This document shows, piece by piece, positions 11,918 to 30,172 of a stretch of 32,000 nt of DNA. The DNA is from Thermoanaerobaculia bacterium (GTDB lineage: Bacteria; Acidobacteriota; Thermoanaerobaculia; Gp7-AA8): the NCBI GenBank assembly GCA_035629865.1, contig DASPHC010000034.1:11589-43588 (forward strand), given 5' to 3'. The position numbers were made by a program, and so were the translations under genes. The notes beneath the pieces are model-generated. The model had not been told where the DNA came from. It was given only the letters and a program-made list of their open reading frames with translations, and made no database searches. Numbering within the stretch: the stretch's first letter is position 1; each line of letters starts with the position of its first letter.

Positions 11918-13007
11918 TATCTCCCCGGGCCAGGCGGAGCAGCGTGACGCCGATCAGGTCGGCCGGGAGGACTTTCGCGGCCGCGCCGAGGTCGATTGCC
12001 GCTTTGGGCATGCCGAAGACGACGCTGCTCGCTTCGTCCTGCGCCATCGTCAGGGCGCCGGCCGTCCTCATTTCCAGCAGCCCCTGCGCGCCGTCGCGGC
12101 CCATGCCGGTCAGGAGAATCCCGGCGGCGGCGTCGCCGAGCATGCGCGCCGCGGAGGAGAAGAGCACGTCGACGCTGGGACGGTGGCGGTTGACGAGCGG
12201 GCCGTCGTGAAGGGCGATCCCGAGGGAATTCCGGCCGTTCCGGACGAGCGACATGTGCCGGTCGCCCGGGGCGATCAGCGCCGTGCCGGGACGAAGGACT
12301 TCGCCGGCCACGGCCTCGCGAACGGACATCGCCGAGGTCTCGTTGAGGCGGCGCGCGAAAGCGGCGGTGAACCGCTCCGGCATGTGCTGCACGATGACCA
12401 TCGCCGGGGCGTCGGCCGGCATGGTGTCGAGCAGTTGCTTGAGGACTTCCGTGCCGCCGGTGGAGGCGCCGATGGCGATGACCCGCGGGATGCCGGCCGG
12501 ACCGCCGTTTCCGAACGCCACCGGTGCGAGGGTGAGGCGCGGGTGCCGCTCCTCGGCGGTCATGCGCTGCGGCGCCTGCCGCGAAGCGGTCTGGCGGGAC
12601 CGCGCCCGTCCGACCCGCGCCTGCGCCGCGGCGCGGACCGTGTCGATGAGGGCGATGGCGGAGTCGCTGAGCCCTTCTCCCATCCTGATCTTCGGCTTGA
12701 GGACGACATCGACGGCTCCGAGCTGCAGCGCGCGCATGGTCAGCTCGCTCGAAGAGTCGGCGAAGCTGGAGCAGACCACGACCGGGAGCGGTGTTTCGTC
12801 CATCACCTTGCGGAGAAACGTCAGGCCGTCCATGCGCGGCATCTCCAGGTCGAGGACGATGACGTCCGGGAGGCGGACATCCATCTTCGTCATGGCGATC
12901 AGCGGATCGGCGGCGGTCGTCACCACCATCGTCGACCCGAGGAGCGCCGTCATCACCTGGCGCACGACGGCGGAGTCGTCGATCACGAGCACGTTCAGCG
13001 CGGTCAT
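11910..13007 (-). CDS. cheB: chemotaxis response regulator protein-glutamate methylesterase
   Basis: Start is MTALNVLVIDDS at ATG 13007, an ATGA overlap with the cheR stop. REC domain followed by the esterase triad context (GASTGG, QHMP, GMGRDG). Confidence 0.95.
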   Translation of the reverse strand: MTALNVLVIDDSAVVRQVMTALLGSTMVVTTAADPLIAMTKMDVRLPDVIVLDLEMPRMDGLTFLRKVMDETPLPVVVCSSFADSSSELTMRALQLGAVDVVLKPKIRMGEGLSDSAIALIDTVRAAAQARVGRARSRQTASRQAPQRMTAEERHPRLTLAPVAFGNGGPAGIPRVIAIGASTGGTEVLKQLLDTMPADAPAMVIVQHMPERFTAAFARRLNETSAMSVREAVAGEVLRPGTALIAPGDRHMSLVRNGRNSLGIALHDGPLVNRHRPSVDVLFSSAARMLGDAAAGILLTGMGRDGAQGLLEMRTAGALTMAQDEASSVVFGMPKAAIDLGAAAKVLPADLIGVTLLRLARGDNE

Positions 13008-13840
13008 CGGGCCATCCGCGAATAGACCGACGGCGCCATCGGGCGCAGCCGCAGGCCGGAGCTGAGCAGGCTCTCCGAATGCCCGAGGAACAGGTAGCCG
13101 GAGGGCCCGAGGCGGGCCAGGATGCGGGTCACCGCCTGGGTGCGCGAGGTGACGTCGAAGTAGATCAGGACGTTGCGGCAGAAGATCAGATCGAACGATC
13201 CGAGCTCCGGCAACTCCTCGTGCAGGTTGAGCCGCTGGAAGCGGATCGCGGCGCGCACGGCGTCGGTGGCCGACATGGTGCCTTTCTGCGACCGGACCCC
13301 GCGCAGCATGTAGGCCTTCAGGTAGTGCTCGGGGATCTCGGGGGCTTTCTCGATGGGCCACATCCCGGCCATGGCCTGCCGGAGTGCACGTCCGGAGATG
13401 TCGGTGGCCAGGACCTCGATGTCCCATCCTTCGAGATGGGCGAGCAGCGTCATGGCGATCGAATACGGCTCCTGTCCGGTCGAGCAGCCGGCGCTCCAGA
13501 CCCTCACGCGCCGCGGCCGCGCGTGGTTTGCCGCCTCGGCGCACCAGCGCGGGAGGATCTGCTTCTCCAGATAGTCGAACTGCGACGGCTCGCGAAAGAA
13601 GCGGGTCTCGTTCGTGACCAGCCGGTCGAGCATCTCCAGGCGCTCCTGCGGCTCGCGCTCGACGAGCGCGAGGTACTGGCCGAAACGCATCATCCCGAGG
13701 GTGCGGATGCGGCGCGAGAGGCGGGCGGTCAGCAGCTCCCGCTTGTGATCGGAGATGTGGATCCCCGCCTCGCGATAGACGAGGTCGCGGAAGCCGCGGA
13801 ATTCGCGGTCCGACATCGGCACGATCTCACTGGTGTGCAT
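13004..13840 (-). CDS. cheR: chemotaxis protein methyltransferase
   Basis: Motifs: FRDLVYREAGIHISDHKRELL, NETRFFRE, VWSAGCSTGQEPYSIAM, IFCRNVLIYF. Start ATG 13840 (MHTSEI) overlaps the cheW end by 14 nt. The alternative is ATG 13816 (MSDREF). Confidence 0.9.
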   Translation of the reverse strand: MHTSEIVPMSDREFRGFRDLVYREAGIHISDHKRELLTARLSRRIRTLGMMRFGQYLALVEREPQERLEMLDRLVTNETRFFREPSQFDYLEKQILPRWCAEAANHARPRRVRVWSAGCSTGQEPYSIAMTLLAHLEGWDIEVLATDISGRALRQAMAGMWPIEKAPEIPEHYLKAYMLRGVRSQKGTMSATDAVRAAIRFQRLNLHEELPELGSFDLIFCRNVLIYFDVTSRTQAVTRILARLGPSGYLFLGHSESLLSSGLRLRPMAPSVYSRMAR

Positions 13841-14447
13841 CGGTGCCCCCCGCGGCCTGGTCGCGCAGGGTCGGGAGCAGCGTTGCGGCATCCATGATGT
13901 CGGTGCTCGACAGGATGGCCGCGAGGTCGAGCAGCACGATCAGCCGCTCGTCGACGCGCACCAGTCCGGGAACGAAGTCGATGCCGAGGCCGAACGGCGG
14001 CGGCTCTTGGATGTCGGCCTGGGAGACGTCGACGACCCGGCTCACGGCGTCGACCATGACCGCGATCACGACCCGCTCGCCGTCGGCGTCCATCTCCACG
14101 ATGATCAGGCAGGTGCGCCGGGAGACGGTGGTCGGCTCCATGCCGAGCCGGGCCGCCAGGTCGACGACCGGGACGACCGTGCCGCGCAGGTTCATGACGC
14201 CGCGCATCCACGCGGCCGTCATCGGGACCGGGGTGAGCGTCCGGTACTCGGCGATCTCACGCACGCGCAGGATCGAGATGCCATATTCGTCGTCGCCGAT
14301 CAGGAACGTGAGCAACTGCTCGAGCGGTGCCTCGGTGGTCGTGCCGGCCGGCTGAGGCAGGAGCCTCTTTTCGGCCGGTGGATTCGCGGCGGCGTCTTTC
14401 GACGCCCGCCGCGGGGTGCGTTTGGTGCTCGTGGCGCGACGTGCCAT
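13827..14447 (-). CDS. cheW: chemotaxis coupling protein CheW with a ~45-aa basic N-terminal extension
   Basis: CheW core: LLTFLIGDDEYGISILRVREI...VMNLRGTVVPVVDL...GLVRVDERLIVLLDL. The ATG shares 1 nt with the mcp stop (TGATG). Confidence 0.9.
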   Translation of the reverse strand: MARRATSTKRTPRRASKDAAANPPAEKRLLPQPAGTTTEAPLEQLLTFLIGDDEYGISILRVREIAEYRTLTPVPMTAAWMRGVMNLRGTVVPVVDLAARLGMEPTTVSRRTCLIIVEMDADGERVVIAVMVDAVSRVVDVSQADIQEPPPFGLGIDFVPGLVRVDERLIVLLDLAAILSSTDIMDAATLLPTLRDQAAGGTDAHQ

Positions 14448-16297
14448 CAGAACCTCTCGAAGTCGAACTGCGACAGCTCCGCGGCGGTGGGCCGGTATCC
14501 GGCGGTTGCAGCGAGATGCGCACCGTCGTCGTCATCCGAGTCTGCGAACGCGGGAGGATCGTCCTGGACGACCGTCCGCTTCGCGCCGAGGGTGAAGATC
14601 TCCATCCGCTGCCGGAGGGTCTTGGCCTGGCCGGCCAGCTCTTCCGCCGTCGCCGAGAGCTCCTCGGCGGCGGACGCGTTCTGCTGGGTGATCTGGTCGA
14701 GCAGGCTCATGGCCTGGTTGATCTGGGCCACGCCCGTCGACTGTTCGTTCGACGCGGCCGAGACTTCCTGCACGAGCTCCGCGGTCTTGTGAATCGAGGG
14801 GACGAGCTGGGTGAGCGACGTGGCCGAGCGTTCGGCGATGCGGACGCTCGATCCCGCCAGTCCGCCGATCTCCTTCGCCGCGCTCTGGCTGCGCTCCGCC
14901 AGCTTGCGCACTTCGCTGGCGACGACGGCGAAGCCGCGTCCGTGCTCGCCGGCGCGGGCGGCCTCGATGGCGGCGTTCAGCGCCAGGAGGTTGGTCTGGT
15001 AGGCGATGTCTTCGACGATGCTGATCTTCTCGGCGATCGCGGCCATCGCTTCCCTGGTCTCGCCGACGGCCCGTCCGCTGAGCTCCGCATCGCGGGCGCC
15101 CTGGATGGCCATGTCGCGCATCTCCTGGCTGTTGGCGGCGTTCTGGGTGATCGAGGCGGTCATCTGTTCGAGGCTGGCCGTGGCCTGCTCGACCGAGGCG
15201 CTCTGGCTGCTGGTGCCGCGCGACAGGCTCTGCGCGGTCGACGAGACCTGCGTCGACGCGGTGGACAGCGTCGCCACGCCGGAGCGCACGTCGCCGATCA
15301 TCTGGGCGAGGTTGCGGGTCATCTTGCGCAGCGCCAGCGCCAGCGTGTCGTCCTTCGACTTCGGCTTGATCGTCGAGGTGAGGTCGCCCGCGGCGATGGA
15401 GTCGGCGATGCCGGTCATCTCCTGGAGGTACGCCACCATGTCGCGGAACGAACGGCCGAGGGTGTCGTTCTCCGAGCGGGGAGCGACGGTCGCGCTGACG
15501 TCGCCGCGGGAGATGCGCTCGGCCGCGCCGGCCATCTCCTGGAAGTACTGCACCATCCGTTTCATCGACTGCAGCAGCCGCCCGATCTCGTCGTCGCGGG
15601 TGCCGTCGATCTCCGCCGCCAGGTTGCCGGCCGCGAGCTGATTGGCCACTTCCACCGCCTGATGGAGCGGCCGGGTGAGGCTGCGGATCAGCATCACCGA
15701 GACGCCGGCCAGCAGGAGCAGGCAGACGACGCTGATGACGATCACCAGCCACTGGGTGGAACGGTGCAGGGAGCGCACTTCGCTGAACGCCGTCTGGATG
15801 TTCTGCTTGCCCTTGCTGCGCGTGGTGTCGAGCGCGGTGGCGAGCTCGTTGTGGCGGCGGCGCATCTCTTCGAGCGACTCCGCGAAGCTCACCCCGGTCT
15901 CGCCGGTGATGAGCCGGACGGTCATGCCGCGCCCGAGGCCGTAGTAGGCGTTGAGCAGGCCGCGCAGACGCTCGACCTCCGCCGCGTCGACGGCCGGATT
16001 GGCGCTCTCTTTCTGCAGCCGCGCCAGGAACTTCTCCTTCAGCGCGTCGGCTTCCTGGATGCCCGCGGCGTCGTGCGCGGCCGCGGCGTCCTGCAGGGCG
16101 CGCTGGATCGAGGTGAGGATCTCGTGCAGGTCGTGATGCATCTCGGTGGCCGGGAAGTAGCCCACCTCGATCATCGTGCTGAAGGACTCGGTGCGCGAGA
16201 CGGCGAAGACGGTCGTGCCGAGGATCAGCACGAGCGCCAATGCGGCGATGGCCGGCATCATGAGGACCCGATGGACGAACTTCAGTTTACGAAACAT
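14447..16297 (-). CDS. methyl-accepting chemotaxis protein (2 TM, periplasmic helical domain, three HAMP-like units, signalling domain)
   Basis: Highly conserved hairpin tip: [40 protein letters not shown]. Repeated HAMP-like segments: [47 protein letters not shown] lies 6 nt before ATG 16297. Confidence 0.95.
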
Positions 16298-17955
16298 GAC
16301 CGCTCCTGATTGCTGCGTGTTGAGTTACGGAAAAGAGAGCTGCGCTGGTCGATCTCGACCTGCAGCAGACCGGGGACGTCGACGATGAATGCGATCCTGC
16401 CGTTCGGGAGGATCGCCGAGCCGGAGAGACCGGGGATGCCGCGCAGGGACTTCGGAAGCGGCTTGACGACGGTGTGGCATTCGCCGTGGAGGTCGTCGAC
16501 GACGAGCGCCGCGCGCCCGCGGGCGTAGCGAACCACCACGACGTTCTCGCGCTCCGCTTCCCCGCCGCCGGGCGTGAACCGCCCGCGCAGGCGGATGAAC
16601 GGAATGCTCTCGCCGCGGTGAGTGAGCACGCCGGTCGCGCCCACGCCGGCTTCTTCCCGTTCCACCGTGCCGGCCGGGAGATGGAGCGCCTCGACGACGG
16701 CTTCCATCGGGATCACGAACGTCTCGCCGCCGACGCCCACGCCGAGGCCGTCGACGATGGCGAGGGTGAGGGGGAGCCGCACGCGGAAGGTCGTGCCGCG
16801 TCCCGGCTCGCTCTCGACGCTCACCGATCCGTGGATCGCGTCGATGTTGCGCCGCACGACGTCGAGGCCGACCCCCCGCCCGGAGAGGTCCGTCACGGCG
16901 TCCGCGGTGGAGAACCCGGGATGGAAGATCAGCTCCGCGGCCTGCGCGGCGGTGAGGGTCTCTGTTTCGCTCACTAAGCCGCGCTCGCGAGCCCGGCGGA
17001 TGACGCGGTCGTAGTCGATGCCGCCGCCGTCGTCGGCGAGCTCGATGACGATCGAGCCGGCCTCACGGAAGCTGCGCAGGATGAGCGTCCCGGCGGCAGG
17101 CTTGCCCGCCGCGCGGCGCGCCGCGGGCTTTTCGATGCCGTGACCGACGCTGTTGCGGATCATGTGGACGAGCGGGTCGCGCAGGTGCTCGATCACGGTC
17201 ATGTCGACTTCGACGTCGACGCCTTCGATGCGCAGCTCCGCTTCTTTGCCGAGCGAGCGGGCGGTGTCGCGCACGATCCGCTGGAACTGCCGGAACGTCG
17301 GACCCACCGGCACCATGCGAAGCTTCATCACCAGCTCCTGCATCTCGAGGTGGAGATGGTCGGCGTCGCGCTGCGCTTCGAGCGCGATCCGGCTGGTGAC
17401 GGTGGGGTCGCCGAGCATTTCGCTGAGGCGGCCGCGGGCGATGCCGATCTCGCCGCTCAGGTCGAGCAGGCGGTCGAGCTTCGCCAGGTCGATGCGCAGC
17501 GTGCGCGAGACGCGCTCCGGCGTCGCCGGCCCTGCTGCCTGCGCGGCGTCGTGCGCCGGGACGTGCAGCGGGTCGGCGCGGCGCAGGTGCTCGATGAGCT
17601 CCAGCTCGGCCGCGGAGAGTGCGCGGGTGCGGTCGGATTCGAACAGCAGGCCGCGCAGCACGTCGACCGATTCGAGGAGCAGCGTGATGATGCCGTTCGA
17701 GACGACGGTCTGCCCGGCGCGCAACCGGTCGAGCAGGTCTTCCATGGCGTGCGCGATCCGGGTCATGGCGTCGAACTCGAAGATCCCGGAGTTGCCTTTG
17801 ATCGTGTGGACCGCGCGGAATACCAACGCGAGGGAGTCGGCGTGCTCGGGGGTGCGCTCGAGCACGAGCAACGCTTCCTCCGCCGCCGTCAGCCCTTCGT
17901 CGGACTCGGCGATGAATGCCTCGAGGAGGGCGGCCATCGATTGGTTGTCGAGCAC
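16282..17955 (-). CDS. cheA: chemotaxis histidine kinase CheA (Hpt, dimerisation, HATPase, CheW-like; no REC)
   Basis: Hpt motif: [12 protein letters not shown]. HATPase: [17 protein letters not shown]-terminal CheW-like domain. Start is probably GTG 17955 (GGGAGAGAG just upstream); the alternative is ATG 17937. The upstream part of track ORF 16282..18330 is a shadow. Confidence 0.95.
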
Positions 17956-17966
17956 GGTCTCTCTCC

Positions 17967-18458
17967 CTACAGCTTCCGAATGAGCGTCGTGCCGTCGGTG
18001 GTGCGGAACGTGAGCTTCCGTCCCTGCCGCCCTTCGACGTCGTGACGAAGGACCGTGATGCCGTTGCGCTCCAGGAAGTCGAAGGCCTCGGCGACGTTCC
18101 GGCTGCCCAGCAGCGGCCCTTCGCCATCGCCCGGCATCACCGAGGCGCCGCCGAACACGCAGGCCAGCAGCGTCTCTCCCCGCGCACCGTTCTCCAGCAC
18201 CCGGTCGAGCAGCATCGGCAGCGCGTGATTGCCGTACCGCGCCGAGGGGGCGGCTCCGCCGTGCGGGAGGATGAAGTGATTGATCCCGCCGACCGCGGTC
18301 AGCGGATCCCACAGGCAAACGGACACGCACGAGCCGAGGACGGTCGTGATTGCGGCGGCAAAGGGCTCTGTCCAGAGGCCGCCTGGATGGAGATACACCT
18401 TGCGCTCGGGCATGGAACGGTTCTCCGTGGCCGCCGGTGGAACGGCGTGCGCTTTCAT
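17967..18458 (-). CDS. cheD: chemoreceptor glutamine deamidase CheD (163 aa)
   Basis: Sequence MKAHAV...VLGSCVSVCLWDP...GGINHFILP...VFGGASV is typical CheD. ATG 18458 is in an ATGA overlap with the upstream GAF gene stop. Confidence 0.9.
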   Translation of the reverse strand: MKAHAVPPAATENRSMPERKVYLHPGGLWTEPFAAAITTVLGSCVSVCLWDPLTAVGGINHFILPHGGAAPSARYGNHALPMLLDRVLENGARGETLLACVFGGASVMPGDGEGPLLGSRNVAEAFDFLERNGITVLRHDVEGRQGRKLTFRTTDGTTLIRKL

Positions 18459-19249
18459 CGGTGCGACTCCTCGAGCTGCTGCCGGGCGGAGACCTGCGCG
18501 TGGAGCGCGGTGCAATAGAGGGCGATGCCGGCCTGGCTGGCCAGCAGGCCGAGGAGTTCCTCGTCGAGGGCTTCCAGTCCGTCGTGTTTCTGGGGAAGGA
18601 GGCGGAAGATCGCGATCGCGCCGGTCACGCGGCCGTCGACCTGCAACGGAACGCAGGCCGCCATGCCGACGCCGCGGCTCTGGTCGCCGTTCGAAACGAA
18701 CTGCACACCGGTGGCCGCGACCTGTCCGATGATCCCGTCCCCGAACGAGACTTCCCGAAAGACCTGCGGCGGCTCGTCGAACCAGTCGATCATCCGCAGG
18801 CGATCCTCTCCTTCGCGCTCGAAGATCGCGAAGTCTTCGGAGCCGATCAGGTTGATCACGATCTCCTTGATGGCTCCCAGGACCTGCCGGCGATCGAGGC
18901 TGCCGTGCAACTGGTAGCCGGCGACGTAGAGGTTCGCGAGGTTCGTGTTCTGGGTCTCGATCTCGACGAAACGGCCCGCCACCGACTCGTTCTCGCGCTG
19001 TACCTCGGAGAGGCGCCGCAGCAGGGTGTTGTGCTCGTCGACGCGCTGGGCAAGCTCCTCGCGGACGTTCATGAGCTGCTCCTGCAGGCGGATCTTCTCC
19101 ACCTGCATGCGGGAGCGGTCGGATTCGAGCGCGGCCACCATGATCCGGAGCCGCCCGTTCTGGTCCTTCACTTCCGCGATGGCGCGGTGGGTGTCCTCGC
19201 GGATCTTCTGGACGTAGTTGCCGCCGGGATTCTCGTTGCGGGCGGTCAT
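18455..19249 (-). CDS. coiled-coil + GAF domain protein (264 aa)
   Basis: Start ATG 19249 (MTARNENPGG) is in an ATGA overlap with the cheY stop. The N-terminal ~110 aa are heptad-rich (MQVEKIRLQEQLMNVREELAQRVDEHNTLLRRLSEVQRENE). The C-terminal half is GAF-like (VLGAIKEIVINLIGSEDFAIFE...IIGQVAATG...PLQVDGRVTGAIAIF). Confidence 0.75.
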   Translation of the reverse strand: MTARNENPGGNYVQKIREDTHRAIAEVKDQNGRLRIMVAALESDRSRMQVEKIRLQEQLMNVREELAQRVDEHNTLLRRLSEVQRENESVAGRFVEIETQNTNLANLYVAGYQLHGSLDRRQVLGAIKEIVINLIGSEDFAIFEREGEDRLRMIDWFDEPPQVFREVSFGDGIIGQVAATGVQFVSNGDQSRGVGMAACVPLQVDGRVTGAIAIFRLLPQKHDGLEALDEELLGLLASQAGIALYCTALHAQVSARQQLEESHR

Positions 19250-19629
19250 TCGGCACCCCCAGCGGCGAGATAGCTGCGGACCTTGGTGAGCAGCTCGGCG
19301 CCGTTGATCGGCTTGGTGATGTAGTCGCTGCAACCGCTCTCGAACCCGGACTCGACGTTCTGTTCCTCACCCTTCGTCGTGACCATGATGATCGGCACGT
19401 TCTTCGTCGCCTCCTGCTGCCGGATCCGGCGGCAGGCCTCGAAGCCGTTCATCTCGGGCATGATCACGTCGAGCAGGATCAGGTCGGGCTTCTCGATGGC
19501 GGCGGTGGCCACCGCCTCCCGGCCGTTGCTCGCCGTGACGATCTGGTACGACTGACCGCGGAGCACCATCTGCTCCATCATCAGAGTCGTCGCGGAATCG
19601 TCGACGAGCAGGATTTTCTTTCGCCTCAT
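19246..19629 (-). CDS. cheY: CheY-like single-domain response regulator (127 aa)
   Basis: Motifs: KILLVDDS, LILLDVIMPEMNG, ITKP. RBS AAGGAGAAG lies before ATG 19629. It is the first gene of the operon. Confidence 0.9.
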   Translation of the reverse strand: MRRKKILLVDDSATTLMMEQMVLRGQSYQIVTASNGREAVATAAIEKPDLILLDVIMPEMNGFEACRRIRQQEATKNVPIIMVTTKGEEQNVESGFESGCSDYITKPINGAELLTKVRSYLAAGGAE

Positions 19630-21247: not shown

Positions 21248-23686
21248 TCACCGCGCTGCCGACTTCTTCTCACGCACCCGTGCAATCACTGGCAACAGGT
21301 CTTTCCGCACTTGCTCCCAGACGAGGGACCGCGGCGAGACCTCGGCGACGCTCTTGAACTTCGGCGCCAGCCGCTGCAGTTTGCCGAGGAACGGGTCTTC
21401 GTCGCTCGCGCAGGGCTCGAGCTTGACGGTGACGATCTCCACCTCGCCGGCCGCATGGCGTTCCTTTGCGCGCTGCAGCTCGATGTCCCGGATGTAGGGT
21501 CGTACGAGCGAGGCCTGGCTGGCGATGAAAAGGAAGATGTCCGCTTCCTCCACCCGCTGCCGGATCTGCCGGTCCCATTCCTGGCCTGCGATCAAGCGTT
21601 GGTCGGTCCAGGAGGCCAGACCGTGTTGGAGCTCGAGGACGCCGAGGATGGCGTCCAGGCGTTTGAGCTGGCGTTCGTTCTCATGGGCGTAGCTGACGAA
21701 CAGGCGCACCGGAACGGGGGCCGTCTCCGGCTCGCGGTCGATGGCCCGCGCCTCGGGCGGAACGAGCTTGTCGAGCTCCCTCGACACGTGGATCTCGGCG
21801 GTCCCTTCCGGCAGCACGGGTAGTTTCTGGGTCGGCCGCTCCGGTGCCTCGATCTCGCGGAGGGCCTTGACGCCGATCCACTGCTCCGCGCTCCCGGTCA
21901 GCTCGAGATCCTCCACCGGCTGCATCTTCATCTCCACATGCAGCGCCTGCAGCTCACGCCGGACCATCGCGGCCAGGACCCGGCGGGTCTCTTCGTCGCC
22001 GCCGAGGACGAAGACGTGCAGCTCCTGCCGGTCGGGCTCCTCGCGAATCAGCGCCTGCGCTTTGGCATGCCGCAGGACGACGCCGTGCCGCCAGTGGGGA
22101 GCGTCTTCACTCAGCTCGTGCGTCCGGACGATGAAGCGGGGGAGCAGGCCCGGTGGCAGGATCTCGTAGCGGTAACGCAGCCGCACCTCCGCCTGCTCCC
22201 AGTTCTCTTTCATTTCGGGCTCGAACTCGGGGAGGCGTTCCGGGACGAGATAGCGGGTCGGCTTCCCATCCTCCTCCTCCCGCGTGTAGCAAAGCTGGAA
22301 CGCGCGCATCAGCTCGAGGATAAAGCGGTGGCTCTCCTTCGGATAATCGTTAGCGTCGATGACCTTCTCGGCCTCAGCCTCCGCCAGCACGCGCGGCATG
22401 TCTGCGACGGTCAGTTGCCCGTCGTTGGCCGCGACCGACGGTGCGCGAATCACGGCATAGACGCCGCCCGTGACCCAACTCGGGTTGAGCACCCGCGTAT
22501 CGTGCAGCTTGGGGTCCTTGCCGAAGTAGAGGGCCAGGCCGAGAGCGTGGAGGATTCCGGCCAGGTCGGCCTGTGCATCGGACCGCTCTTCGCCATGGTT
22601 GCTGCACAACTCCGTGTACTGATCGTAGGTGAGGAAGTTGCCGTGCATCCCGCCGACGGCATCCTTGATCGCGCGCCACCGTTTCGGGAACGGGAGCCAG
22701 ACGTCCGGCATCTGCTCGACCGTGCTCACGATCGTCTCGCGCAACTCATTGACGCCGTCACCATGAAGCGCGTCGACCGGCATGAATGCGACGATGAACG
22801 GGAACTTCCGGCGCAGCTTCACTTCGTCGACGCGCCAGGGCCGGCCGCGGCTCCAGTTCAGGACGACGATCGCCGGCGAGCCGTTTCCCTGCGCCTCGAT
22901 GAGCTTGAGCCAGTATTCGGCGTCCTTCTGCGCGGACCCGGTTCGCGGCTCCAGTACCAACAGGTACAGGCTACGCTCGGTGAGGAAGAACTGGTGCGTG
23001 GAGTGGAGGATCTCCTGCCCGCCGAAATCCCACGCTCGCGTTCGGACTTCGCCGCCGGGACACGACAGGGCGAGCTCGCGAATGGCGATGGAGTGGGTCT
23101 CGGATTCCCGCGGGTCAGGCGGCTCGTTTGCCAGGCGCTTCACCACCGTCGTTTTGCCGGCCTTGCCGCGGCCGACGAGGAGTAATTTCAGTTCGCGCAG
23201 AGGGCGGCTATTTTCGGTGCGCGATTCGAGGTAGTAGCGTAGGACTTCTACGGGGCGACGCGTGAGGAGACTTTCCGGCAGCCCCAGGGCTGGATTGCGG
23301 CCAACCCACAGTGTCTGTAATGACAGACCTTGCAGCGTCTCCGGTAGAGACTCAAGAAGGTTGTTAGACAAATAAAGATCTAGGAGTTTTGTCAAACGGC
23401 CAATTGTGTCCGGCAGGGAACGTAGACGATTATCTGCGAGGTCGAGCACCGTCAGCGTGGTTAACTCGCCGAACCACTCGGGGATCTCGCTGATCTTGTT
23501 CTGGCCGAGGTCCAGAATGCGAAGATTCCGAATAGTTCGAATGCTCTCCGGAACCTTTTCCAGCCCAAGTTCGTTCAGCCTCAGCGTATCGGAGGAGTAC
23601 GTGCCGACACCGGTTTTGTACTCCGCGATCATGCGTTCCGCCAGTTCCGCGGGTGTCCTGAACGCGTTTCGCTTCCCTCTCTCCAC
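21248..23686 (-). CDS. ROCO-type protein: LRR + Roc GTPase + COR + C-terminal TIR domain (812 aa)
   Basis: LRR units: LxxLxLxxNxLxxLP x5 (aa ~35-130). Roc G1 (GRGKAGKTT) and G3 (WDFGGQE). COR-like: LNPSWVTGGVYAVIR, FILELMRAFQLCY. TIR-like at aa ~659-795: VRLFVSYAHENERQLKRLDAIL...WTDQRLIAGQEWDRQIRQRVEEADIFLFIASQASLVRPYIRDIELQRA. The track start is GTG 23686, with GGAGG only 2 nt upstream; the alternative is ATG 23632. Confidence 0.85.
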   Translation of the reverse strand: MERGKRNAFRTPAELAERMIAEYKTGVGTYSSDTLRLNELGLEKVPESIRTIRNLRILDLGQNKISEIPEWFGELTTLTVLDLADNRLRSLPDTIGRLTKLLDLYLSNNLLESLPETLQGLSLQTLWVGRNPALGLPESLLTRRPVEVLRYYLESRTENSRPLRELKLLLVGRGKAGKTTVVKRLANEPPDPRESETHSIAIRELALSCPGGEVRTRAWDFGGQEILHSTHQFFLTERSLYLLVLEPRTGSAQKDAEYWLKLIEAQGNGSPAIVVLNWSRGRPWRVDEVKLRRKFPFIVAFMPVDALHGDGVNELRETIVSTVEQMPDVWLPFPKRWRAIKDAVGGMHGNFLTYDQYTELCSNHGEERSDAQADLAGILHALGLALYFGKDPKLHDTRVLNPSWVTGGVYAVIRAPSVAANDGQLTVADMPRVLAEAEAEKVIDANDYPKESHRFILELMRAFQLCYTREEEDGKPTRYLVPERLPEFEPEMKENWEQAEVRLRYRYEILPPGLLPRFIVRTHELSEDAPHWRHGVVLRHAKAQALIREEPDRQELHVFVLGGDEETRRVLAAMVRRELQALHVEMKMQPVEDLELTGSAEQWIGVKALREIEAPERPTQKLPVLPEGTAEIHVSRELDKLVPPEARAIDREPETAPVPVRLFVSYAHENERQLKRLDAILGVLELQHGLASWTDQRLIAGQEWDRQIRQRVEEADIFLFIASQASLVRPYIRDIELQRAKERHAAGEVEIVTVKLEPCASDEDPFLGKLQRLAPKFKSVAEVSPRSLVWEQVRKDLLPVIARVREKKSAAR

Positions 23687-23693
23687 TGCCTCC

Positions 23694-23792
23694 CTACTCC
23701 CCGGCCTTCTTCTCAGGCCTCGCCGGCGGCGGATGCCCGTACTGCACGCCGAAGGCGAACTTGTCGAACTTCAAGGGCATGTTCTTCTTCAT
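23694..23792 (-). CDS. possible 32-aa ORF, mini-paralog of the 156-aa protein at 20711..21181
   Basis: My own translation: MKKNMPLKFDKFAFGVQYGHPPPARPEKKAGE*. Its N-terminus resembles MKKSKPAPKYDFGLS and its C-terminus resembles DFGHPPPPRPPKKKEEEEG. DNA homology is visible (cttcttc..aggcctcg.cggcggcgg). It ends 7 nt before the Roc-TIR GTG. It may be a remnant rather than a gene. Confidence 0.3.
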   Translation of the reverse strand: MKKNMPLKFDKFAFGVQYGHPPPARPEKKAGE

Positions 23793-23933
23793 CTCGAATC
23801 TCGCGATCGGCCGTCTGGGAACTGCTCTACGGTACTACCAACACCGGCGACAGCCGAGAGGCATGATGGGAGCCCGCGATGGGAGCGACGGTGTCCGCGC
23901 AGGCTTGTCCGGCGCGGCGTCTCGCCGCCAGGG

Positions 23934-24112
23934 AACGGACCGCCGGCCCGTCCCGCCGGCCGGTCCGCCGACGTCGCGTCGGCAGGCACTCGCGATGCGT
24001 GTCGTATTCGACGGTTGGGTGGTGGAGCCGCGCCGTAGGCGAGCTCCTGCCAAGAGCCGGCCCACGAGGACGTGGGCGGACCGGCCGGCGAGGACGGCCG
24101 GCGGTCCGTTTG
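23934..24112. repeat. palindromic element related to 20471..20692
   Basis: Arms are ggaacggaccgccggcccgtcccgccggccggtccgcc and ggcggaccggccggcgaggacggccggcggtccgtttgc. The same inner hairpin appears with a different loop (gccgacg-tcg-cgtcggc). Confidence 0.7.
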
Positions 24113-24213
24113 CGGCGCGCCGGAGGCGCGCCAATCGCCCCGGAGGCATGTCGTGGGGTCAGAGCTTCGCTCTTCGTTCCTGAGCAAAGCAAAGCTCTGA
24201 CCCCAAGAGCGAG

Positions 24214-24805
24214 CCCGGCGCTGAAGATCAGAGCCGGGAGGCAAGAAACGAGTCGCGCGCGGCAAGATTGTTGTCTCGGGCGACAAGATTCTTGTCTCGC
24301 GAAGCGTCATTCTTGTGTCGCGGCTCTGAAAACCAGAGCCGGGAAGCATCAAACGAGTCTCGGGCGCCAGGATTCTTGTCTCGCGAGGCAACATTCTTGT
24401 GTTGCGGCTCTGAGAATCAGAGCCGGGAGGCAAGGAACGAGTCTCGCGAGGCAAGATTGTTGTCTCGGGCGCCAAGATTCTTCGCTCGCGAGGCAACATT
24501 CTTGTCTCGCGGCTCTGAAACTCAGAGCCGGGAGGTAAGAAAAGAGTCTCGGGCGCCAAGATTCTTGCCTCGCGACGCAACATTCTTGTGTCGCGGCTCT
24601 GAAAGTCAGAGCCGGGAAGCAAGAAGCGAGTCTCGCGCGACTGGATTGTTGCCTCGGGCGCCAAGATTCTTGCCTCGCGAGGCAACATTCTTGTGTCGCG
24701 GCTCTGAGAGTCAGAGCCGGGAAGCAACAAACGAGTCTCGGGTGACAAGATTCTTGCCTCGCGAGGCAACATTCTTATCTCCCGGCTCTGAAAGTCAGAG
24801 CCGGG
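24214..24805. repeat. nested tandem array: 21-bp palindrome-containing units, 84/105-bp super-units, 189-bp higher-order period
   Basis: There are seven copies of the hairpin CGGCTCTGA-nnn-TCAGAGCCGGG, with starts spaced 105, 84, 105, 84, 105 and 84 bp. Between them lie 2 or 3 units of 21 bp built on TTGyCTCGsGrGrCAA (a perfect 16-bp palindrome TTGCCTCGCGAGGCAA in several copies) plus a gATTc/cATTc linker. G+C is lower than the surroundings. The array is preceded by a related hairpin at 24155..24204 (ggggtcagagctt/aagctctgacccc). Confidence 0.9.
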
Positions 24806-24855
24806 AAGCGAGGATCATGTCTCTCGCGACGAGATCGACTTGGGCTGGATCGGCT

Positions 24856-27439: not shown

Positions 27440-27456
27440 GCGGGCTTCACCCGCTC
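27438..27456. terminator. bidirectional stem-loop at convergent gene ends
   Basis: gagcggg-cttca-cccgctc forms a perfect 7-bp stem. It contains the stop codons of both convergent genes (27437..27439 and 27447..27449). Confidence 0.55.
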
Positions 27457-28994
27457 ATGATCTTCTTCAATTGGTAGAGTGCCTTGGCTTCGAGGTCGAG
27501 GTAGCTCAGGGGGAGCATTTCGACTTTCGGGGCGGAGGTTTTGGGGTCCCAGCGGATCCGTTCGCCGGAGAGTTTGGTCTTGCGGTCGCGGGGGATGCCG
27601 GTGCGGGTGGTGATGGAGAAGAGGTCGACGTAGCGATGCGGGCCGATGCCGAGGAAGGGCTCGAAGCGGATGGCGTTCGGGTTCGGGGCCGATGCGTCGT
27701 CGTAGGCGCGGATGGCGTCGCGGTGAAGCTCCAGGGCCCGGCTCTTCGGGTACGGCTCGATGTAGACCACGCGGCGGATGCCGGCGTTGACGATCAGCCG
27801 CGCGCATTGGTGGCAGGGGAAGGTGGTGGTGTAGAGGGTGGCGTCGCGGGGGCTGGTGCCGATGCGCGCGGCGGCCATGACGGCTTCCATTTCGGCGTGG
27901 GTGGTGCGGCCGAATTCGAGGAGGGTCATGACGCGCGATTTCTTGAAGACTTCGCGGGCGTCGTCGAGCTTCGGCCAGCCGGCATGTTCGGCCATCTCCA
28001 GCAGTTCGCCGATGATCTGGTCGGCATGGACGTTGACGGAGTCGCGGTCTTCGTGGATGTCGCGGCGGTCGTACGGATCGCCGGCGCGATAGAGGCCGCC
28101 GCCCGCCTTGGGGACGTCGTTCCAGCCGATGCCGAGGACCTCGCGGTGGGGGGAGACGAGGACCGCGCCGACCTGGCGTCCGAGGGCGCCGGAGGCGAGG
28201 GAAGTGGCGAAGGCCTGATACATGAACTGCTCGTCGGCCCACGGCGTCTCGCCGAGATCGCCGAGGACGAGGCGGGTGAAGCGGTCGATCTGGTCGAAGA
28301 GCGGCTTGGTGCTGTTCGGCGAGACGAAGAGGTCGCACAGCTGGAAGACGTCGCGCAGGCGCTGGCCGTACGGGTCGGACGACTCGTCTTCGTCGCGCCG
28401 GGCGAGCGCCTCGGCGCTGGCGAGGTGGTTGTCGAAGTTGGACGAGGAGGGGGTCTCGTTGTACGACCCGGCGATCCGGCGGGCCAGCGACTCGACGCGC
28501 GCCGGCCGGTTGACGTTCACGCCGACGAGGAAGAATCCGGGCCCGTAGATGCGGCGCAGGAGGTGGACTTCTTCCGGCCGTTTGAGGGAGCGGATGATGT
28601 ACGCCCGTCTGCCGGGCTGTCCTCCGCGGCGTTTCCGGCGCCCCCGGACCTCGGCCAGTGCGGCCGTCGCGACGGCGGCGGGGTTGGAGACCAGCCGGCG
28701 GATGGCGTTACCGGCATCCATGTAGGAGGCGATACGCTGCTCTTCGGGAGTCTCGATCAGGCGAATCGGCGATTCGTCTACACGGAGGAGAGTACGCTTT
28801 GCGGCGATCTGGCGGATCAAGGCGGTGACACTGATCTCCTCGACCTCCCGGTATTCGCACTTCTTCAGGGAGTCGCCGAGGGTACGGCTGACTTCCTGCA
28901 GGTCGGCTCCGACCGGGCCGGCGAGGGCGAAGACGAGCTCGAGGTGCCGTTCCGCGGCGTCTTCCAAGGCGTTGTTCATGTCGTCGTCCCGCAC
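27447..28994 (-). CDS. anti-phage-type dCTP deaminase-like protein (kinase-like N-terminal domain + dCMP/cytidine deaminase zinc-binding domain)
   Basis: Deaminase motifs: THAEMEAVMAAAR (H-A-E) and TTFPCHQCARLIVNAGIRRVVY (P-C-x-x-C). The ~300-aa N-terminal region begins LELVFALAGPVGADL. Size and architecture fit the defence dCTP deaminase family. Start is GTG 28994 or ATG 28979 (MNNALED). Confidence 0.7.
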   Translation of the reverse strand: MRDDDMNNALEDAAERHLELVFALAGPVGADLQEVSRTLGDSLKKCEYREVEEISVTALIRQIAAKRTLLRVDESPIRLIETPEEQRIASYMDAGNAIRRLVSNPAAVATAALAEVRGRRKRRGGQPGRRAYIIRSLKRPEEVHLLRRIYGPGFFLVGVNVNRPARVESLARRIAGSYNETPSSSNFDNHLASAEALARRDEDESSDPYGQRLRDVFQLCDLFVSPNSTKPLFDQIDRFTRLVLGDLGETPWADEQFMYQAFATSLASGALGRQVGAVLVSPHREVLGIGWNDVPKAGGGLYRAGDPYDRRDIHEDRDSVNVHADQIIGELLEMAEHAGWPKLDDAREVFKKSRVMTLLEFGRTTHAEMEAVMAAARIGTSPRDATLYTTTFPCHQCARLIVNAGIRRVVYIEPYPKSRALELHRDAIRAYDDASAPNPNAIRFEPFLGIGPHRYVDLFSITTRTGIPRDRKTKLSGERIRWDPKTSAPKVEMLPLSYLDLEAKALYQLKKIMSG

Positions 28995-29086: not shown

Positions 29087-30172
29087 ATGAACGTCATCGC
29101 CGTGGAACGCTGCCCGTGGTGCGGCAGCATGATCACCCACAAAAAGTTCGTCCAGATCCAGGCCGCCATCCGCGAAGAGGAGCAGAAGAAGCTTGCCGCG
29201 GCTGAGAAATCCTTCCGGGCCGCCCTTGAAAAAGAGGTCGCCGCGCAGCAGTTGAAGTTCCAGAAGGAGCGCCAGGCGCTCGATGCCGAGCGGGCGAAGC
29301 TGGGGAAACAGATCGAGGCGGCGAAGCAGGAGGCCGAGAAGCAGCGCAAGAAGGACATCGCCGAGGTCCGCCAGATCCTGCAGAAGGATCGCGAGACCGC
29401 CATCCTGAAGAAGGAGGCGGAGTTCGCCCGGGAGCGGGAGGCGCTGCAGAAGCGGATCGCCGAGATGAGCCGGCGGGTGAAGCGCGGCGGCGAGGTCGGG
29501 GAGGGGTCGGAGCTCGATCTCTTCGACGAGCTCCGCGGCGCCTTCCCGGAGGACCAGGTCACCCGCACGAAGGGGAAGGGTGTGGGCACGATCCTGCACG
29601 ATGTGCGCTACAAGGGGCGTTCCGCAGGCAAGATCCTGCTCGATATCACACCCCGCGCAGCGTGGCAGCACGCGTTCGTGACCCGGTTGCGCGAGGAGCA
29701 GTCGGCCACCGGCACCGATCACGCGATCCTGTCCACCCCTGTCTTTCCGTCCGGCAAGCGGGAGCTGTTCGTCGATTCCGGGATCATCGTGGTCGCCCCG
29801 GCGCGGGTCCGGGCGATCGTGGAGGTGCTGCGGAAGGCGCTGATCTCGATGTACGTGGCGAAGCTGAGCGACGCGGAGCGGTCGGACAAGCTGAGCCGCC
29901 TGTTCCGCTTCATCACCTCGCCCGGCTTCAAGAAACGGCTGGCCGAGGCCTCCGACCTGGCAGGAGAGGCGCTGGAGATCGACGTGCAGGAGAAGCGGGC
30001 CCACGACAATGTCTGGAAGAAGCGCGGCACGGTCCTGACCCGCATCAAGCACGTGCTCCGCGAGATCGACACCGACGTCAGCGCGATCGTCGAGGCGCGG
30101 GAGGAGGGCGACCCCGAGGCGCCTCCCTCGCTGCGCGCTGCCGCTTACCGCATCACGGACAAAGAGCAATGA
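29087..30172 (+). CDS. DUF2130-like protein: N-terminal zinc ribbon, long coiled coil, C-terminal restriction-endonuclease-like domain (361 aa)
   Basis: GGGAGG lies 5 nt before the ATG. Zinc ribbon CPWCG, then ~110 aa of Lys/Glu/Ala/Gln coiled coil. The following stretch, GSELDLFDELRGAFPEDQVTRTKGKGVGTILHDVRYKGRSAGKILLDITPRAAWQHAFVTRLREEQ...HAILSTPVFP, follows the DUF2130 layout as I recall it. Confidence 0.65.
   Translation: MNVIAVERCPWCGSMITHKKFVQIQAAIREEEQKKLAAAEKSFRAALEKEVAAQQLKFQKERQALDAERAKLGKQIEAAKQEAEKQRKKDIAEVRQILQKDRETAILKKEAEFAREREALQKRIAEMSRRVKRGGEVGEGSELDLFDELRGAFPEDQVTRTKGKGVGTILHDVRYKGRSAGKILLDITPRAAWQHAFVTRLREEQSATGTDHAILSTPVFPSGKRELFVDSGIIVVAPARVRAIVEVLRKALISMYVAKLSDAERSDKLSRLFRFITSPGFKKRLAEASDLAGEALEIDVQEKRAHDNVWKKRGTVLTRIKHVLREIDTDVSAIVEAREEGDPEAPPSLRAAAYRITDKEQ

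Follow-up and report, generated by a model that had tools for sequence, protein, structure and literature searches.

A candidate stand-alone conflict protein of the bacterial ROCO class with a C-terminal TIR domain, encoded on a Thermoanaerobaculia contig

Gene and domain architecture

The window analyzed in this work is a stretch of 32,000 nucleotides from the genome of a Thermoanaerobaculia bacterium (NCBI GenBank assembly GCA_035629865.1, contig DASPHC010000034.1, positions 11,589 to 43,588 of the forward strand), and the gene under study, at 21248..23686 on the minus strand, encodes LRR, Roc, COR and TIR domains in a single polypeptide, referred to below as the ROCO-TIR protein. An initial annotation of the window had placed an open reading frame (ORF) at exactly this position, and the frame has a coding-like GC content at third codon positions (GC3) of 0.81, which was also obtained for the whole stop-to-stop frame and is in keeping with real genes in this 66%-GC window. 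The features of the gene are listed here in window coordinates, with CtRoco denoting the Roco protein of C. tepidum.

21248..23686 (-), ROCO-TIR coding sequence: GTG start at 23686, 812 aa, stop codon at 21248-21250
23267..23599 (-), LRR domain, aa 30-140: Pfam LRR_8 (51.6 bits, cut-off 27), LRR_4 and LRR_1
22697..23197 (-), Roc G-domain (Ras of complex proteins), aa 164-330: Pfam Roc at aa 167-277, 74 bits (cut-off 27); CtRoco and LRRK2 alignments; Foldseek
23147..23173 (-), G1/P-loop GRGKAGKTT, aa 172-180: canonical GxxxxGK[ST], invariant or nearly so in the clade described below
23015..23029 (-), G3/switch II DFGGQ, aa 220-224: inside the fully conserved WDFGGQEILHSTHQFF
22847..22858 (-), G4 NWSR, non-canonical, aa 277-280: at the position of CtRoco NKID by residue-level alignment to 6hlu and 8r4b
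22238..22687 (-), COR-A, aa 334-483: Pfam 110.7 bits (cut-off 35.3), E 7.1e-32; PDB 3dpt, 3dpu and 4wnr
21752..22192 (-), COR-B with C-terminal extension, aa 499-645: Pfam COR-B at aa 499-592, 73.8 bits (cut-off 27); CtRoco alignment to residue 968
21254..21709 (-), TIR domain, aa 660-811: Pfam TIR_2 at aa 663-771, 48.1 bits (cut-off 28); PADLOC ThsB1; profile; Foldseek
21479..21481 (-), codon of E736, the Glu of YIRDIELQ (aa 731-738): invariant in alignments A1 and A3

A protein 100% identical in sequence is deposited at NCBI as 'COR domain-containing protein [Thermoanaerobaculia bacterium]', from an Acidobacteriota metagenome-assembled genome (MAG), with a length of 794 aa and a start at the internal ATG at 23630-23632. 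Since conservation among homologues begins at approximately P12 (consensus PEEIAE.RI..WK), and since the structural model places a helix at aa 12-25, the upstream GTG is more likely to be the true start of the gene than the internal ATG.

The order LRR-Roc-COR-TIR had been read from the translation without database searches, and it was borne out by hidden Markov model (HMM) searches for LRR, Roc, COR and TIR_2, in which every family was matched above its Pfam curated cut-off and in the proposed order; the three motifs that had been named (P-loop GRGKAGKTT, DFGGQ and YIRDIELQ) were likewise all found. A Roc domain directly before COR-A and COR-B, the arrangement that defines ROCO proteins, was recovered by Pfam, by alignment to CtRoco and by Foldseek. 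CtRoco is the closest solved structure (6hlu and 8r4b, E 3.5e-64), with aa 49-645 of the query aligned to CtRoco residues 351-968, and was followed by the Roc domain of LRRK2 (E ~1e-23, profile alignment against PDB). The full-length AlphaFold2 model (predicted local distance difference test score, pLDDT, 75.8) comprises five LRR strands, a Ras-like fold, a helical COR-A, a beta-rich COR-B and a terminal domain of alternating beta strands and alpha helices, and Foldseek searches with this model returned 6hlu (E 2.3e-29), 3dpu, LRRK1 and LRRK2. In the same model the LRR region (pLDDT 81-96) forms five 23-residue repeats with strands at aa 34, 57, 80, 103 and 125, and it aligns to the last four LRRs of CtRoco. 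No Pfam match to a STAND (NB-ARC/NACHT) ATPase was found in the protein, the NTPase of which is the Ras-like Roc domain. NCBIfam returned just generic LRR and small-GTPase matches, far below threshold.

The protein had not been recognized as a named defence system. This stands insofar as PADLOC holds no whole-protein defence model that matches it, the TIR part alone being matched, and does not stand for the architecture itself, which Kaur et al. 2021 (PMC8195603) had already described: in their bacterial LRR-AP-GTPase-COR proteins the C-terminal domain is TIR or one of at least 23 others, and the proteins are predicted to be counter-invader systems; the string 'COR+TIR' occurs approximately 580 times in the source data of that paper (PMC8195603). 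The architecture is thus not new and its novelty was overstated in the initial annotation, the interpretation of which is reasonable but unproven. The points added by the present analysis are a tight clade, a hypervariable LRR surface, an NWS(H/R) G4 motif with an enrichment of Asp loss among TIR-bearing ROCOs, the lack of a partner gene and mixed genomic surroundings.

A delimited clade with a variable LRR surface

With a word-indexed search, 2,671 homologues were recovered at E < 1e-10. Identity to the query is 65-75% for all of the best 120, and nearly all of these carry the same set of Roc, COR and TIR Pfam domains. An exhaustive search of 50%-identity representatives returned 5,483 proteins at E < 1e-30, among which the close relatives collapse to one full-length representative (P0079, 70% identical) plus fragments, and the next match has 41-42% identity. 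Because a close set at 65-75% is followed by a drop to 41-42%, sequence identity places the ROCO-TIR protein in a sharply delimited orthologous clade within a large and diverse ROCO-TIR family. Approximately one third or more of the top 150 representatives, judged by eye, reach the TIR domain, most of them with longer LRRs, and members of the clade are compact (~810-840 aa, 5 LRRs). A pattern scan of genome contigs built on the single protein, with patterns that were too specific, gave 4 distant partial relatives.

By source names, the hosts of the clade are Acidobacteriota (Thermoanaerobaculia, Pyrinomonadaceae, Blastocatellia), Chlorobiaceae/Chlorobaculum, Prolixibacteraceae, Longimicrobium and Planctomycetota, that is, MAGs of Acidobacteriota, Bacteroidota/Chlorobi, Gemmatimonadota and Planctomycetota, which are free-living phyla sampled from soil and sediment. 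Flanking DNA across the clade loci ranges from 38 to 74% GC and GC3 of the genes from 0.23 to 0.83, mostly tracking the host. A recent horizontal sweep was therefore ruled out as the source of the high identity within the clade, and because gene GC3 follows host GC, the similarity is better ascribed to old and strong purifying selection. The loci L002 and L018 are compositional outliers relative to their flanks, which suggests more recent transfers in these two.

The LRR is on average 45% identical to the query, against 78% for Roc, 75% for COR-A, 79% for COR-B and 75% for TIR, and the C-terminal region of COR-B (aa 593-660) is retained at 69%. Alignment columns of the LRR have a mean entropy of 1.92 bits, those of Roc, COR and TIR one of 0.62-0.79 bits. 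Variation in the LRR follows the register xLxxLxLxxNxLxxLP: entropy is 0.0-0.9 bits at the L, N and P positions of the scaffold and 2.6-3.5 bits at the x positions exposed to solvent. A variable LRR surface joined to a frozen switch and effector is, as far as alignments can tell, a pattern like that of immune receptors. At 45% identity and 2.6-3.5 bits at the x positions, the domain also has the character of the rapidly evolving N-terminal LRR that marks the class of Kaur et al.

The TIR domain and its conserved glutamate

The C-terminal region has both the sequence profile and the alternating beta/alpha (flavodoxin-like) pattern of a TIR domain. The PADLOC model for ThsB-type TIR proteins (ThsB1) matches aa 662-809 with an E-value of 4.5e-22. 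When a profile of 20 ROCO-TIR C-termini was compared to PDB, the TIR domain of Cat1 was the best match (4.7e-11), with TLR15, TLR6, TLR1, TLR2, RPP1, AbTir, ROQ1, TIR-STING and TIR-SAVED also matched, as were the TIR domains of RPS4 and L6; down to an E-value of ~0.06, TIR-containing chains were matched exclusively. In Foldseek searches with a TIR-only model, the first 24 matches all contained TIR domains (best E 4e-4; TM-score normalized by the query, TMq, up to 0.59) and included SPARTA TIR-APAZ, EcThsB (second-best), RPS4, SARM1 and AbTir. A word-indexed search with the TIR domain alone returned almost exclusively fragments of the same clade.

The Glu of YIRDIELQ, which had been singled out as a conserved context, is E736 and occupies the conserved TIR position after the third beta strand. 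No sequence of alignment A1, or of the TIR alignment A3 (20 sequences), departs from this residue, which is conserved in at least 98% of 120 close homologues. The fetched loci encode 50 further full-length ROCO-TIR proteins, some of which are just 25-39% identical to the query, and every one of these keeps it. In two profile alignments it aligns with the conserved TIR Glu of Cat1 (DELEQA) and of TLR15 (YELYFA). In NAD-cleaving TIR domains, the Glu at this position is the catalytic one. Conservation of E736 even in ROCO-TIR proteins of 25-39% identity points to a TIR domain that would be enzymatic rather than a scaffold.

Four short proteins consisting of TIR alone (P0169, P0158, P0137 and P0131; 146-216 aa) are 58-76% identical to the TIR domain of the ROCO-TIR protein and lie on contigs of 12-847 kb; these may come from genes that encode TIR alone, or from ROCO-TIR genes that were split or frameshifted.

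Nucleotide-binding motifs of the Roc domain

The protein had been described as GTP-regulated. Two of the three canonical G motifs, G1 and G3, are intact and support this description; the third, G4 ([NT]KxD), is replaced by NWSR, in which both the Lys and the guanine-specificity Asp of NKxD are lost, and to that extent the description is weakened. Among the 120 closest homologues, G4 is NWSH in 65 and NWSR in 30 (95/120 together), or a near variant. Because G4 is altered, the nucleotide that is bound is possibly not strictly GTP. The G4 of LRRK2 is THLD, in which the Asp is kept.

Loss of the Asp is found beyond the clade and takes the forms NKxK, other NKx variants and NWSH (loci L011-L095 and representatives P0200-P0348). 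With G4 extracted by regular expression, the ratio of proteins without to proteins with the Asp was 48:14 among TIR-bearing ROCOs and 1:24 among those without TIR in the fetched loci (Fisher p = 1e-10), and 44:13 versus 13:27 among the 50%-identity representatives (odds ratio 7, p = 2e-5), the counts being phylogenetically non-independent and given without correction for phylogeny. Enrichment of Asp loss at G4 among TIR-bearing ROCOs appears from these sequences to be a real trend.

Comparison with known proteins

The ROCO-TIR protein carries LRR, AP-GTPase, COR and a C-terminal effector in one polypeptide, as does the class of Kaur et al., and with Npun_F6039 of Nostoc punctiforme it shares the order of domains, a variable N-terminal LRR, a Roc-type GTPase, COR, a C-terminal TIR and a single stand-alone gene. 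The class itself is a computational prediction. The compact NWS(H/R) clade was not found singled out in the Kaur paper; moreover, Kaur et al. stress multicellular bacteria, whereas the clade resides in MAGs of Acidobacteriota, Bacteroidota/Chlorobi, Gemmatimonadota and Planctomycetota. In the searched literature the term 'AP-GTPase' was found in the Kaur paper alone, and nothing was found that joins 'Roco proteins' with 'anti-phage'; among the papers listed, 'COR domain' was in no case joined with TIR and antiphage. Three recent surveys of TIR or defence domains do not mention GTPase or Roc, and a 2019 review of Roco proteins gives all prokaryotic Rocos as LRR-Roc-COR only (PMC6337361).

CtRoco (6hlu, 8r4b, 3dpu) and the ROCO-TIR protein have in common the LRR-Roc-COR-A-COR-B layout, the P-loop, DFGGQE and the C-terminal region of COR-B, at 23% identity to 6hlu (Foldseek). 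They differ in that the CtRoco crystal construct has a much longer LRR, to which the ROCO-TIR LRR aligns only from residue 351, and in that CtRoco has the canonical NKID where the ROCO-TIR protein has NWSR. The alignment stops at approximately CtRoco residues 950-968, before the TIR domain, and no TIR match was seen in CtRoco. We know of no established biological function for CtRoco. The tandem of LRR followed by Roc-COR is likewise shared with LRRK1, LRRK2 and DAPK1 (Foldseek E 1e-20 to 4e-23), but these eukaryotic proteins have a protein kinase as their output, are far larger and carry ankyrin, armadillo or WD40 additions.

The initial annotation had also drawn a parallel to LRR-NTPase-TIR immune receptors, and this analogy held up in Pfam, PADLOC, the CtRoco alignment, Foldseek and the TIR profile. 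With the STAND/NLR receptors that use TIR (RPP1 and ROQ1; bacterial TIR-NLR, Avs and bNACHT proteins with TIR), the ROCO-TIR protein would share the logic of a repeat sensor, an NTP switch and a TIR effector activated by induced oligomerization. In place of an NB-ARC/NACHT ATPase, however, it has a Ras-like Roc-COR switch, and its order is reversed, with the LRR at the N-terminus and TIR at the C-terminus. Because it has no STAND ATPase, the ROCO-TIR protein falls by its domain content outside the NLR/TNL class, of which it is an analogue and not a member.

For the TIR domain itself, the best structural and profile matches, SPARTA TIR-APAZ, SARM1, AbTir, TIR-STING and Cat1, have the conserved Glu. 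The activators of such oligomerization-activated TIR NADases are Argonaute, ARM-SAM, a cyclic dinucleotide or cyclic tetra-adenylate (cA4), whereas that of the ROCO-TIR protein would be Roc-COR. Compared to Thoeris ThsB, for which the ThsB1 model match was given above, the TIR domain is fused to a sensor and switch module of 650 aa.

Surroundings of the homologues

An all-against-all comparison of ORFs from the window and 95 fetched loci identified no gene family that accompanies the ROCO gene, which is a stand-alone unit. A 156-aa ORF located 67 bp downstream of the gene in the window was considered as a partner and ruled out, as it is conserved beside no homologue. No homologue was found in curated phage genomes. 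Plasmids yielded ten ROCO genes, none covering TIR, and contigs of IMG/VR yielded distant ROCO-TIR relatives, one located 3 kb from a phage head-maturation protease and one adjoining an integrase. Two of the homologue loci have further conflict-type genes next to the ROCO-TIR gene:

L001: ROCO-TIR gene preceded directly by LSDAT/SLATT and TPR-S, genes predicted to act in conflicts
L005, 12473-15166: TIR-WD40 gene (TIR_2 plus WD40 repeats, 897 aa), downstream of the ROCO-TIR gene at a distance of 2 kb; upstream, a fragment of a TrwC relaxase

The second of these loci looks like a small conflict-gene cluster.

Proposed function and alternatives

Taking the sequence features together with the analogies drawn above, we consider the ROCO-TIR protein to be probably a stand-alone, single-polypeptide immune or conflict protein of the bacterial ROCO class, with a TIR effector that would bring about abortive infection by NADase activity. 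The conserved TIR Glu, the hypervariable LRR surface and a defence gene located 3.8 kb away (described in the last section) fit such a role. Under this proposal, the short LRR with its hypervariable exposed positions would bind an invader-derived molecule or guard a host one, binding would be relayed to the Roc-COR nucleotide switch, and a change in oligomeric state would bring the TIR domains together or apart. The assembled TIR domains would form an active site around E736 and cleave NAD+, with depletion of NAD+ and possibly an ADP-ribose (ADPR)-derived product, and the infected cell would be arrested. We infer the ligand, the direction of nucleotide control, the NADase activity and the phenotype.

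TIR NADases act only upon self-association of TIR, as in SARM1, SPARTA, AbTir, TIR-STING, plant TNLs and Cat1. CtRoco is a monomer when bound to GTP and a dimer when nucleotide-free, and dimerizes via the C-terminal half of COR (PMC6337361). Because the TIR domain begins ~15 residues past the COR-B segment that dimerizes CtRoco, a change of oligomeric state at this segment would be expected to move the TIR domains.

Several observations weigh against an immune function. Homologues had been expected to associate with defence islands, and here the picture is mixed: defence or mobile context is seen in the window and in L001, L005, L014 and L015, but L002 and L004 contain no defence genes and nothing suggestive, and in L003 (8001-10538), L006 (8001-10589) and L019 (3301-5730) the ROCO-TIR gene sits among housekeeping genes in the conserved order carB, MoCF, ROCO-TIR, nuoA, nuoB. 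Occupation of the same chromosomal slot in these three loci, which are of Pyrinomonadaceae/Blastocatellia type, is unusual for a presumed defence gene. Between L003 and L006, identity is 69% for ROCO-TIR, 84% for carB, 76% for MoCF, 83-87% for nuoA/B and 53-59% for a pair of extracytoplasmic function (ECF) sigma and anti-sigma factors, so that in Blastocatellia/Pyrinomonadaceae the gene evolves approximately like a moderately constrained core gene. When 138 neighbours taken from 20 loci were scanned with PADLOC, without a background control, the matches gave no clear signal and were to generic models, with kinase (PD-T4-6) and radical-SAM (pVip) models at the top. Relaxed selection, and not diversifying selection, could be the cause of the high entropy at the x positions of the LRR, and with synonymous sites saturated at clade distances, the ratio of nonsynonymous to synonymous substitution rates (dN/dS) on the LRR is not computable. 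Confidence in the TIR model is medium (pLDDT 70), with low-confidence loops. Given a G4 that lacks the guanine-specificity Asp, the term 'GTPase switch' may not hold literally, and no experimental test of any ROCO-TIR protein was found in the searched literature.

Part of this evidence is shared with an alternative that we regard as unlikely, namely that the protein is a conserved cellular regulator outside defence, which would respond to a nucleotide or stress signal by turning over NAD+ or by signalling of the ADPR type. Such a regulator could serve, for instance, in dormancy or starvation, or in the programmed cell death of social or filamentous bacteria. Identity of 65-75% across hosts with flanks of 38-74% GC, with GC3 tracking the host, implies long residence under purifying selection; the whole clade amounts to one full-length 50%-identity representative; the gene is syntenic between carB/MoCF and nuoA/B in the three Blastocatellia-type loci; and the uncontrolled PADLOC scan of neighbours revealed no clear enrichment of defence genes. 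A hypervariable LRR on an otherwise frozen protein is, however, hard to square with a fixed cellular ligand. Outside Blastocatellia the context differs in every locus and is in some cases that of defence or mobile genes, and L002 and L018 are compositionally mismatched to their flanks.

The altered G4 motif raises a further interpretation, which we offer as speculation with a low chance of being correct. The Roc domain of the NWS(H/R) clade would be a low-affinity or base-promiscuous sensor of the nucleotide pool and not a guanine-specific GTPase; distortion of the nucleoside triphosphate (NTP) pool by a phage would empty Roc, COR-B would dimerize, and the paired TIR domains would cleave NAD+. 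The LRR would then tune or veto the switch and not be the primary sensor, and the protein would be a guard of nucleotide homeostasis and not a receptor for phage proteins. Were this true, LRRK2 research would gain a Roc-COR switch whose enzymatic output is easy to measure.

A Thoeris-like sensor, in which TIR would make a signalling nucleotide (an isomer of cyclic ADPR or similar) for an effector encoded elsewhere, is somewhat less probable again. The best PADLOC match of the TIR domain is indeed the ThsB model (E 4.5e-22), and EcThsB is the second-best structural match, but SPARTA-type depleting TIR domains match structurally at least as well, and no ThsA-like or other conserved partner adjoins the gene in the window or the 95 loci. 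Effectors of Thoeris are normally adjacent to thsB, and no gene for a ThsA-type effector (SIR2/SLOG, Macro, TM, caspase and others) was found in the window, which counts against such a sensor. The lack of a partner gene favours direct NAD+ depletion over Thoeris-style signalling as the predicted output.

It is highly improbable that the TIR domain serves for interaction without being an enzyme, in the manner of animal TLR/MyD88, or that the protein is a secreted LRR/TIR virulence effector directed at a eukaryotic host. The TIR profile does match TLR TIR domains as well, and NCBIfam reports weak matches to type III effector LRRs. Against both readings, the Glu at the conserved TIR position is invariant, the NCBIfam scores (30-59 bits against cut-offs of 450-1243) amount to generic LRR similarity, the proteins come from MAGs of free-living phyla in soil and sediment, and no secretion-system genes were found among the neighbours of the ROCO-TIR gene.

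CtRoco has served as a structural stand-in for LRRK2 Roc-COR since 2008, and to our knowledge the cellular role of prokaryotic Roco proteins has not been established. By analogy with other TIR enzymes, a ROCO with TIR output would be a Roc-COR switch with a simple and measurable read-out, cleavage of NAD+, so that control of an output domain by nucleotide state and dimerization becomes directly testable in a bacterial protein. It thereby offers a handle on two questions, the role of prokaryotic Rocos and the way in which Roc-COR drives an output domain. If the proposed immune function is correct, a receptor switched by a Ras-like GTPase would join those switched by STAND ATPases, and the class predicted in 2021 would be validated. 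The clade is a practical entry point, with proteins of ~820 aa in which switch and effector are extremely conserved and the LRR alone is variable, and its unusual G4 poses a specific biochemical question.

Other features of the window

The remaining genes of note around the ROCO-TIR gene are as follows.

13004-19629 (-): complete chemotaxis-type cluster of CheR, CheW, a methyl-accepting chemotaxis protein (MCP) with HAMP, CheA, a GAF-domain protein and CheY
27447-28994 (-): dCTP deaminase, 515 aa, with a cytidine/dCMP deaminase domain; PADLOC dCTP-deaminase defence model, E 2.5e-146
29087-30172 (+): 361-aa protein divergent from the dCTP deaminase, with an N-terminal CPWC zinc-ribbon-like motif and a long coiled coil

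A dCTP deaminase at a distance of 4 kb had been noted from the translation, and the ORF and its PADLOC match agree with this; by its domain and model score, the 515-aa deaminase is a genuine defence gene of the nucleotide-depletion type, located 3.8 kb away from the ROCO-TIR gene. The surroundings had also been called accessory-looking; the immediate neighbours are a chemotaxis operon and a repeat-filled non-coding stretch, with no clear island. The chemotaxis cluster, encoded on the strand of the ROCO-TIR gene, follows that gene downstream after ~1.6 kb and two small ORFs. Upstream, ~1.5 kb without coding signal is followed by a GH64-like gene and then by the deaminase. The 361-aa protein has no Pfam match and weak matches to coiled-coil PADLOC LmuB models (best E 6e-8), and could be another defence-linked gene. 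Scans of the window for Rfam families, tRNAs, promoters and terminators returned nothing informative.

The non-coding stretch upstream of the ROCO-TIR gene contains a 620-bp intergenic tandem array at 24216-24835, between that gene and the GH64-like gene. Its unit is 21 nt (consensus GTCTCGCGAGGCAAGATTCTT), with 14 copies within 3 mismatches versus 0 expected, and the units form higher-order repeats of 84, 105 and 189 nt, each with the hairpin CGGCTCTGAAAnTCAGAGCCG. The motif has no Rfam match and is absent from all 95 related loci. A 327-aa ORF at 23789-24772 (-) was ruled out as a gene and attributed to the tandem repeats (GC3 0.66, no family match, repetitive translation). The same stretch contains imperfect inverted repeats at 25097-25152/25205-25260 (56 nt, 82% complementarity), just upstream of the start of the GH64-like gene, and at 23934-23975/24069-24110 (42 nt, 88% complementarity).

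At the far end of the window, a large ORF at 530-4468 (-) encodes TPR repeats and a zf-HC2 anti-sigma motif, with a CHAT (caspase-like) domain at the C-terminus, and is overlapped in another frame by an ORF with sigma-70 region 4 at 3778-4713 (-), leaving the gene boundaries unclear. Proteins of the CHAT-TPR class are likewise predicted to act in conflict or cell death.

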